Origin: Candidatus Omnitrophota bacterium | GTDB lineage: Bacteria; Omnitrophota; Gorgyraeia; 2-01-FULL-45-10 | Direction of reading: 5' to 3' | Length of the DNA stretch: 64,000 bases | Assembly: GCA_041648975.1 (NCBI GenBank) | Contig: JBAZNZ010000010.1 | Coordinates: forward strand, 10 to 64,009 | Shown here: positions 57,201 through 59,509 of the stretch, piece after piece | Numbering within the stretch: position 1 is the stretch's first letter | How the letters are laid out: the number at the start of each line of letters is the position of its first letter | Made by a program: the position numbers and the translations under genes | Notes under the pieces: generated by a model | The model's input: only the letters and a program-made list of their open reading frames with translations | Database searches by the model: none | Told to the model about the DNA's origin: nothing

Positions 57201-59509
57201 GCCTTGCGCGCCTGTCTCTCGATCGACGATATCTGGCGCTTCACTTCCAGTATTATATCGTTTATGCGCAACAGGTTCTGCTCGGTCTGCTCGAGCTTTC
57301 TCAATGCCTCTCTCTTCTTCGATTTAAATTTTGTGATACCGCTCGCTTCCTCAAATACATAGCGCCTGTCTTCGGGGCGGGAGCTCAAGATGAGGTCCAT
57401 CTTCCCCTGTTCCATGATGGAATAGCTTTCAGTGCCTATTCCTGTTCCCATGAGCAGTTCAGATATGTCCTTCAGCCTTACAGGGGTCTTATTCAGAAGG
57501 TATTCGGTCTCGCCTGAGCGGAATACGCGGCGCGTTATCGTTACTTCGTCGTAGTCTATAGGGAGTGTTCTTTTTTCATTGGAGAATGTGAGCGATACTT
57601 CGGCAAAATTGATGGGCTCTTTGTTGTCTGTGCCGTTGAATATGACGTCCTGCATGCTGGACGCGCGCAGGGACTTCGCAGATTGCTCGCCGAGGACCCA
57701 CCTGATGCTGTCGGCGATATTGCTATTATGCACTATGATATCCTGAGCGATAAAGTTATGGGTATCGGATATCGATAGATCGTATACCCATTTTTCCGAA
57801 TAAACTTTTTCTATACTGACAATCTCATCCCAATATATATCGGAATCAGCCAGTTGCTTAAGATAATCAAATATGGACCTGCCAAGCCCTGTTACTTGAC
57901 CATGCTCGGCAACAACATTCAATGCCTCCCGTAATCCCTGCCGGCTCGGCATGCACCTGTTCTCGTAATAGCTTGTCAGTTTGGGTGATACCTTCTTCAG
58001 CCGTTTTATATTTACCCTGGATAACTTAACCAACATTTTGAAAATCTTATTGATTTCAGGTATTAAATCGAGGTTAGGATTTGTCTTATAATCAAGAGCT
58101 CTTATCCTCTCCAACCTCCCTGACTTCTTACCGACAAAATGCAATAGGCCGGCTAGCTTCTTCACATTATCCCGATTGTAAATGTAAACTGAATAGTATG
58201 TCCGCTTAGTCTTCAGGTCTGTATTAACCGCGCATTTATTCTTTTTACGGATTAAGGAAACTACTCCTAACCGAAGAAGCAGGCTGGCAACACCTTCGGC
58301 CAAGGTTTTTGACGCGGTTGCGTATTCAAAATAAGGAAGCTTGTCAGCCGTCCTATCGATAGATACGTATCCATCGCCTTCAAACAGGCTTGAGAGAAAT
58401 GCTGTTATTATCTTGTGGTCAGCGGCAAATATCTGCGGCGGCACTCTCTTTTCTCCAGACAAACCGTTTATCTTCAGGTCGAAAGCCTTCTCCAAAAACT
58501 GGCATAATGCGTGAGAAAATATGAGGACGTCTTGGGCGCGTTTTTTATAATTGAAAACCTTCGCATCAACACCAAATCCGGCTTTGGCGCACAAAATGAA
58601 ATCCTCTATCATCTTTTCGTCTTCATTCACAAACCATATTTGATCGCCCTTAGTAGTCCTTCCTTCGGATATCAGATAACCCAGGAATCGCGCGATTTCC
58701 GGAGTAACTTTTCTCGGTACATTTACACTGCCCGTCCCTCTGGACTTGATAGTCGTTATAAAATCGGGCACTTCACTTATACCGCATTCGCTAAGCATGG
58801 TGGATAATGCCGGCAATGAGATCGCCTGCCCATCCATCGCAGAACTAAGCGCCAACTGTTTAATATTTAAGGAGCCGCTCATTTCCGACAGGGTATTATA
58901 TCCGGTTTTTACGGAACGGATGAACTCCGAAATATCTTCCGAGAAAGGAATATATACTAAATCTTCGCTCTTGAATTTGCGGAATATTTGGAGGAGGTTA
59001 AGCTTTCTTCCGGCATTTTGAATATTAAGGACGCGCGGGGCTGAAATCTTCGTACCAACCTTTAACTGGTCTGCCGTTAACGTAATCAGGCCCGCATCTT
59101 TTATGCTGAAAAATGGGTGATAATGCGTTGTGGTTACTTCTCTGCCGGTCCTTGTTTTTATCTTTAATAGATAGTCCGGCGCCTGTCTTTTAATAAAGGC
59201 GTATACAGGTCTCGGCTCGATTTGTAAAGTCTGTGGATTGAGAGACAGAATTAGAATGTTTGAGCGATCGGGGTAAAACACGGAGCCATCATCAAGAGTT
59301 TCTATAGCGCCGGGAGAGTTGAAAGCAGATTCAACCAGATCTTTGATTGCGATTTGGGAGCCGTTGGAAAGACAGACCTTGCTTTCGCCGCTCAAGCATT
59401 TACCGCAGCCGTTAGGACCGACGACAGCGGTAACGCCGGGCTCGAAATTCACCTTCGTCTTCTCGGCAAACGACTTAAAACCCAGTAACTCGAGGGATTT
59501 AAAGTGCAT
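54212..59509 (-). CDS. smc: Chromosome segregation protein SMC interrupted by a 558-aa intein in the Walker-A P-loop
   Basis: [37 protein letters not shown] | C...HN | [20 protein letters not shown]. Long coiled coils, hinge, C-terminal signature [17 protein letters not shown] and Walker B [10 protein letters not shown]. Host protein without intein is 1,207 aa. Confidence 0.9.
   Translation of the reverse strand: [1765 protein letters not shown]
57725..59398 (-). mobile_element. Intein (class 1, Cys1 ... His-Asn, +1 Ser) with LAGLIDADG homing-endonuclease domain, inserted between Lys and Ser of the SMC GxxGxGKS P-loop
   Basis: Begins CLSGESKV, ends DIIVHN followed by extein SNI. Block-C-like [11 protein letters not shown] and block-E-like [24 protein letters not shown] motifs. 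TTHYHPFF resembles an N3/B block. Confidence 0.85.

Follow-up and report, generated by a model that had tools for sequence, protein, structure and literature searches.

The insert in smc

The stretch of DNA analysed here, referred to below as the window, comprises 64,000 nucleotides of contig JBAZNZ010000010.1 from assembly GCA_041648975.1 of a Candidatus Omnitrophota bacterium, and carries on its minus strand an smc gene whose Walker A coding sequence is interrupted by a long in-frame insert. The gene occupies 54212..59509 (1765 codons plus stop), is preceded by a GGAGG ribosome-binding site about 14 nt 5' of its ATG, and specifies a precursor of 1765 aa that is matched by the Pfam models SMC_N, SMC_hinge, Intein_splicing and LAGLIDADG_3. 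Three parts can be distinguished in the precursor. An N-extein of 37 aa (59399..59509) ends in the start of Walker A, GPNGCGK, with Lys37 at position −1 and Cys35 at −3; it is followed by the 558-aa insert (precursor residues 38–595; window 57725..59398), which begins at Cys1 and ends in His557-Asn558; and a C-extein of 1170 aa plus stop (54212..57724) contributes the +1 Ser, coiled coil, hinge, LSGGEK signature motif and Walker B (CVMDEID). The +1 Ser is encoded by AGC at 57722-57724 and completes Walker A (GK↓S, the arrow here and below marking a splice junction).

An earlier sequence-only reading of the locus had proposed an intein at 57725-59398, and these limits proved exact, on the minus strand. 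Translation of this interval on the minus strand is open throughout (558 aa, CLSGESK...DIIVHN) while the plus strand contains many stops, and excision would leave a protein of 1765 − 558 = 1207 aa. The insert differs in composition from its host, with a GC content of 0.43 versus 0.49 for the host gene and a third-codon-position GC content (GC3) of 0.47 versus 0.62 for the extein.

Consistent with the same reading, the protein encoded outside the insert is a full SMC. After removal of the insert it scores 968.2 bits against the NCBIfam model TIGR02168 SMC_prok_B (cut-off 567.35), covering profile positions 2–1180 of 1181, and 75 bits against Pfam SMC_hinge, and both the signature motif and Walker B can be read from its sequence. 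Its residues 1–215 align without gaps to the head of Bacillus subtilis SMC (3zgx, E=3e-75), with Met1 opposite Met1, which places the insert exactly between the Walker A Lys and Ser (GxxxxGK↓S), as had been claimed. The junction is also seamless at the DNA level. Compared by blastn with the window, the intein-free Omnitrophota allele L080 (protein P0044, 71% identical) shows a clean 1674-bp empty site, its alignment covering window positions 59508-59400 and continuing directly at 57722-56558. Judged from its sequence, the host gene is intact apart from the insert.

Anatomy and predicted structure of the insert

All four family models that describe inteins and their endonucleases match the insert above cut-off. 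Pfam Intein_splicing (PF14890) scores 93.3 bits (E=1.7e-26; cut-off 35.8), Pfam LAGLIDADG_3 (PF14528) 69.5 bits (E=2.9e-19; cut-off 22.5), and the NCBIfam models intein_Nterm (TIGR01445) and intein_Cterm (TIGR01443) 59 bits (cut-off 24.5) and 25.6 bits (cut-off 15.6), respectively; the Hint blocks whose absence would have spoken against an intein are thus present. Residue conservation was read from an alignment of 15 full-length protein-database alleles with 35–60% identity to the window intein, in which C1, T91, H94, E245, G246, G341, D342, D540, H547, N548, H557 and N558 are invariant. We also built an AlphaFold2 model of the intein on this alignment (mean pLDDT 90.7, pTM 0.90), from which the domain borders given below were taken.

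The splicing domain is split between the two ends of the insert. The N-terminal splicing (Hint) lobe (aa 1–122; 59033..59398, minus strand, as are all intein features) contains block A with the Cys1 nucleophile (TGC, 59396-59398) and block B with its TxxH motif (T91-H-Y-H94-P-F; 59108-59146), and is the part matched by TIGR01445 and by the Pho/Pab CDC21-1 inteins. The C-terminal splicing lobe (aa 521–558; 57725..57838), matched by TIGR01443, contains block F (57746-57790) with the conserved elements W-V-Y-Asp540-L and H547-N-F, and block G (QDIIVHN; 57725-57745) with the terminal His557-Asn558. The +1 residue is Ser in the window and in other SMC alleles, with Thr in P0069. The class-1 hallmarks listed in the earlier reading (Cys1, penultimate His, terminal Asn and +1 Ser) are therefore all in place. 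Class-2 and class-3 inteins by definition lack a nucleophile at position 1, and the combination of Cys1 with a full catalytic set and Ser at +1 identifies the insert as class 1.

Between the two lobes lies a LAGLIDADG homing-endonuclease core (aa ~216–418; 58145..58753), flanked on either side by a helical region. Both of the LAGLIDADG-like blocks noted previously were found in this core: motif 1, which includes FLGYLISE245G, at aa 236–247 (58658-58693), and motif 2, which includes FLSSLFEGD342G, at aa 334–344 (58367-58399). Each closes with an acidic residue followed by Gly (E245-G246; D342 and the next Gly), and both acidic residues belong to the invariant set. The region preceding the core is a helical linker or putative DNA-recognition region (aa ~130–205; 58784..59011), defined from the secondary structure of the model, and shows the lowest conservation within the intein (46% identity to its nearest relative, L001, described below). 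The region following it, a second helical domain connecting the endonuclease to the C-terminal splicing lobe (aa ~426–517; 57848..58123), was likewise delimited from the model and is kept in P0069, a mini-intein of 287 aa.

The best Foldseek matches of the model in the PDB are inteins that bear endonucleases: TliVMA (7qss, E=4e-27), PI-PkoII (PI-TkoII, 2cw7, E=1e-25), PI-PfuI (1dq3) and PI-SceI. PI-PkoII and TliVMA are the best matches over the whole molecule (TMq 0.67 and 0.63) and, like the window intein, combine a Hint domain and accessory domains with an endonuclease that has two LAGLIDADG motifs; however, sequence identity is only 19%, the helical inserts at aa 130–205 and 426–517 are only partly matched, and their hosts, given as the endonuclease PI-PkoII entry and the V-ATPase A subunit, differ from SMC. 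The central domain also matches the free-standing LAGLIDADG enzymes I-DmoI (TMt 0.60–0.68) and I-Tsp061I (0.70), and aa 233–418 of the model follow the helix and strand order of the pseudo-dimeric alpha-beta-beta-alpha-beta-beta-alpha LAGLIDADG fold. By sequence profile, the closest splicing domain of known structure is that of the Pyrococcus CDC21-1 (MCM) intein (6rpq and 6rpp, E=7e-44 and 3e-36). The two share the Hint fold, with a root-mean-square deviation of 1.6–2.9 Å over ~125 residues, whereas the host of the CDC21-1 intein is the AAA+ helicase MCM and its solved chains are 168 and 249 aa long compared with 558 aa here. Motif, profile and model evidence together make it very likely that the insert is a canonical, splicing-competent class-1 intein.

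Distribution of the SMC intein

A protein search with the intein returned 33 relatives hosted by SMC (P0001–P0033). The junction G-P-N-G-x-G-K↓C is found in 31 of the 33, or 32 if the GSNASGK variant of P0028 is included, and the remaining protein, P0008, begins 3' of the junction; the consensus insertion site can be written G-x-N/S-G/A-x-G-K↓C...HN↓SN. Source names of the intein-bearing proteins include Omnitrophica, Blastocatellia, Rokubacteria and Micrarchaeota. The SMC entries listed from the protein database are all 1008 aa or shorter, and full-length intein-bearing SMCs were consequently seen as DNA loci only. Such loci came from a scan in which each GTDB species was represented by one genome; it produced 571 intein relatives, the best 80 of which were kept and represent 79 distinct loci.

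Within this set, 51 of the 79 loci carry the SMC intein at the identical codon boundary. The bacterial loci belong to Omnitrophota, 'Planctomycetia' metagenome-assembled genomes (MAGs), Methylomirabilota/Rokubacteria, Acidobacteriota, Armatimonadota, Chloroflexota and Patescibacteria, and the archaeal loci to Micrarchaeota, Iainarchaeum, Nanoarchaeia, Woesearchaeota and Pacearchaeota (DPANN) as well as to one Methanosarcinales MAG. Alleles of this family are 33–67% identical to the window intein. The nearest locus among those kept is L001 from Omnitrophota isolate STB_109, whose intein is 67% identical and whose SMC head shares 89.5% identity over the first 200 and 94% over the first 160 C-extein residues.

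Occupied sites occur alongside reduced and empty ones. A search with the insert-free SMC listed 120 proteins, mostly from Omnitrophota, of which 118 include the P-loop; 117 of these are intein-free, among them the closest matches (66–75% identity), and the remaining one is P0069. The 558 aa are thus not a native SMC segment shared by intein-free homologues, the outcome that would have contradicted the earlier reading. Shortened or endonuclease-less copies at the SMC site comprise P0033 (221 aa), L055 (306 aa), L061 (367 aa) and L043/L044 (459 aa). In P0023 the end of block F is missing, as are block G and ~140 aa of the SMC head. Narrow motif patterns missed divergent alleles, so a missing pattern match does not equate to loss of a motif.

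The SMC intein is not rare, and its sequences are numerous in public databases, where some entries already bear the label 'intein/homing endonuclease'. The earlier remark that SMC inteins are not commonly reported agrees with the literature, full-text searches of which returned a single sentence on archaeal SMC (see below) and no paper describing bacterial SMC inteins; the rarity it implied does not hold, given the allele's presence in 51 of 79 loci and 32 database proteins.

Two further observations concern individual alleles and codons. The Rokubacteria protein P0022 (638 aa) consists of an SMC N-extein and an SMC-type intein up to block F (WVYDL...HNFVAG), and then continues as ...ALKN↓TDGSHIRTLLLTFF...IAQPPLYKV, a stretch resembling the terminal part of a GyrB intein followed by a GyrB C-extein. 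This protein is either a metagenome assembly chimera joined via conserved intein blocks or a real recombinant. Separately, among the 51 occupied alleles the codon for the +1 Ser is AGC or AGT in 41 and TCN in 10; the single empty allele looked at (L080, 2710-2712) has TCC. This difference, seen in comparison with one empty allele, could reflect a target preference of the endonuclease or co-conversion.

Evolutionary history and mobility

Full-length, mini and truncated copies of the SMC intein are sporadically spread together with empty sites, a combination classically associated with the homing cycle. At several archaeal loci the intein is closer to that of the window than is the extein head (e.g. 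42% versus 34% in L028), as would be compatible with transfer between domains. In comparison with L001, no part of the intein is better conserved than the endonuclease core (76% aa identity, pN 0.15, pS saturated at 0.74), which argues for continued selection on the endonuclease. We consider it somewhat more likely than not that the endonuclease of the window intein is still active.

More distant homologues interrupt the Walker A loops of other ATPases, likewise between GK and S/T. An archaeal ATPase carries such an intein at GKRGSGK↓C...HN↓SY in Woesearchaeota, Pacearchaeota and other archaea (L068–L070, L072–L074, L078 and L079), and a related intein is found in DnaB at GRPGMGK↓C...HN↓T in L075 (Chloroflexota) and P0037-42. 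These inteins are homologous to that of the window (24–32% identity overall, ~29–32% at the genome loci named), but reside in other hosts and fall far below the identities within the SMC family. Their positions suggest jumps between the P-loops of different ATPases.

Proposed splicing and homing, and alternative explanations

Starting from the anatomy, catalytic residues, fold, exact insertion and empty sites and distribution, all of which are documented above, we posit that the element is spliced and mobilised by the established class-1 and homing mechanisms. The smc gene would be translated as a 1765-aa precursor that is unable to bind ATP because the 558 aa split its P-loop. Splicing would begin with an N-S acyl shift at Cys1, aided by Thr91 and His94 of block B and Asp540 of block F, and proceed through trans-esterification to the +1 Ser and cyclisation of Asn558, aided by His557, to an O-N shift that restores the GK-SN peptide bond. 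The expected products are a normal, active SMC of 1207 aa and a free 558-aa endonuclease. The latter would cleave smc genes that lack the intein within the strongly conserved sequence encoding the P-loop, and the intein would be copied in as the break is repaired. Homing of this kind would account for the occurrence of one allele at one site across many phyla beside empty sites and endonuclease-less remnants. Overall, we hold with high confidence that the element, a class-1 intein, bears a homing endonuclease with two LAGLIDADG motifs and is situated between Lys37 and Ser38 of the Walker A motif of a bacterial SMC.

Several results nevertheless temper this account. Across 49 loci, the identities of intein and extein rise and fall together (r=0.89), indicating that long vertical co-descent within lineages makes up a large part of the history, and much of the spread within phyla may accordingly be due to vertical descent and not to recent homing. 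Synonymous sites in the comparison with L001 are saturated (pS 0.68–0.87), so that selection on the endonuclease can be stated only qualitatively. In addition, a tblastn search of 50,697 phage records found no close copy that would point to a phage vector; the matches were distant inteins of 24–29% identity in terminase, RecA and helicase genes. The correlation of intein and extein identities would suit an intein that still splices but is resident and immobile, with an endonuclease that is inactive or lacks targets, and that passes from parent to offspring along with smc in this Omnitrophota lineage. Such a history would also explain why the nearest relative, L001, has an intein at the identical site in an SMC head 94% identical to that of the window, and endonuclease-less derivatives show that decay does occur in this intein family. 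Against it, the metal-binding acidic residues E245 and D342 and both motifs are invariant across the 15 alleles, the endonuclease core is the best-conserved region, many close orthologues remain as empty targets, and the lower GC3 of the intein suggests incomplete adaptation to host composition. We therefore regard residence without mobility as possible, though the less favoured account.

Alternatives that concern splicing itself appear less probable still. The junction GPNGC-G-K↓C places a CxxC motif (C-G-K-C) across the scissile bond inside Walker A (59387-59398, minus strand), with Cys in place of the usual Ser at position −3, and a disulfide between Cys35 and Cys1 could, in an oxidising environment, keep the first splicing step from taking place, leaving SMC inactive until reduction. 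There is precedent for this chemistry in the MoaA intein of Pyrococcus abyssi, in which Cys1 and a Cys of the N-extein form a disulfide that stops the first step (review PMC10663303), and a role as stress switches has been suggested for P-loop inteins (PMC4760082, PMC4513877); moreover, Cys occupies −3 in 25 of the 51 intein-bearing loci. However, Cys at −3 is a trait of the host lineage, GPNGCGK being present in 112 of 117 intein-free matches, mostly from Omnitrophota, while Ser or Ala occupies this position in half of the alleles that carry the intein, and the C-G-K-C motif may be coincidence. Conditional splicing is thus improbable at this locus, and slightly more doubtful is the broader proposition that the intein has been co-opted as a redox-gated switch in Omnitrophota and other GPNGCGK phyla, whereby the precursor would be blind to ATP under oxidative stress and give rise to active condensin on reduction. 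If true, such an intein would tie chromosome organisation to redox state.

A dead insert that no longer splices, leaving smc a pseudogene with a non-functional product, is very improbable. Decayed relatives such as P0023 do exist, yet nothing specific to this locus favours decay: 1765 codons are open, all splicing residues are intact, and the extein, in which the hinge, signature motif and Walker B are all present, scores 968 bits as a full-length SMC. The last alternative, that the 558 aa are a native, lineage-specific insertion domain of SMC or an assembly chimera, can in practice be discarded, since the insert matches curated intein and LAGLIDADG models and the fold of solved inteins, independent assemblies from numerous studies have the insert at one and the same codon boundary, the empty site is exact, and the alignment to B. 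subtilis SMC is gapless.

Genomic context

The surroundings of smc are those of an ordinary bacterial chromosome, with a GGDEF gene, ribBA, ribD, ligA, pnp, ftsK and a MiaB-like gene, and no further intein was found in ten other large open reading frames (ORFs) of the window that were scanned. Directly upstream of smc, a 1251-aa ORF (60243-63998, minus strand) reaches the right end of the window; its sole Pfam match is a weak NUDIX domain at aa 535–633, the rest being uncharacterised. Downstream lies a GGDEF/GAF diguanylate-cyclase gene (52948-54195, plus strand), part of which (53068-53253) shows 69–74% DNA identity in L002, L003, L004, L007, L009, L017 and L029. As these matches occur in many intein-bearing Omnitrophota loci, the smc-GGDEF neighbourhood is conserved in the group.

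Further along, a flavin mononucleotide (FMN) riboswitch (Rfam RF00050, 92 bits; 52129-52321, minus strand) lies 5' of ribBA (50789-51985, minus strand), which encodes 3,4-dihydroxy-2-butanone 4-phosphate (DHBP) synthase and GTP cyclohydrolase II, with ribD at 47481-48572; together these form an ordinary riboflavin regulon. The most unusual feature of the window is not the intein but a giant open frame (3..24734, minus strand), which spans at least 8244 codons and continues beyond the left edge. Its Pfam matches include a Glu/Leu/Phe/Val dehydrogenase, a methyltransferase, a GH77 4-alpha-glucanotransferase (199 bits), the amylo-1,6-glucosidase GDE_C (183 bits) and a carbohydrate phosphorylase (85 bits), and the greater part of the frame has no match. 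It would be unusual for functions of glycogen metabolism to be fused in one giant protein.

Relation to known inteins and significance

P-loops are the best-known hot spot for inteins. The sequence-only reading had cited RecA, DnaB and RIR as examples, which is correct for the first two but not for RIR, as ribonucleotide reductase has no P-loop. Documented P-loop hosts are RecA/RadA, DnaB, MCM and RFC (PMC4760082, PMC4513877). A survey by Novikova et al. 2016 (Mol Biol Evol 33:783; PMC4760082) describes how inteins of proteins for replication and chromosome maintenance cluster in ATPase domains and P-loops, treats MCM site a as a P-loop site, and says of archaeal SMC only that it carries inteins. 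The host family is the same as that of the window intein, which resides in a bacterium, and the archaeal genes retrieved here have a homologous intein at the same codon boundary. The Pyrococcus horikoshii RadA and E. coli RecA site-c inteins are also P-loop inteins (PMC4513877), and with them, as with the window intein, the precursor is necessarily dead as an ATPase until spliced. Unlike the window intein, the RadA element is a mini-intein of ~170 aa without an endonuclease, and its splicing has been demonstrated to be extein-controlled and temperature-dependent (PMC4513877). If the CxxC junction of the SMC intein matters, it would represent a further natural case of conditional protein splicing, in this instance controlling condensin.

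The window intein is an addition to a known kind, being a canonical LAGLIDADG intein in a canonical hot spot of a host family already noted for Archaea, and its practical value is modest. Gene callers and NCBI annotation split or mislabel intein-bearing SMC genes, for instance as 'AAA family ATPase, partial' or 'LAGLIDADG family homing endonuclease'. NCBIfam exception models for intein-containing proteins exist for GyrA, RtcB and Tes, and none matched for SMC; a dedicated model would correct SMC annotation in Omnitrophota, Acidobacteriota, Chloroflexota, Patescibacteria and DPANN. With this locus, bacterial SMC joins the P-loop ATPases known to carry inteins, and its allele family, with full-length and mini forms and empty sites in two domains of life, is suited to the study of the homing cycle and of cross-domain transfer.

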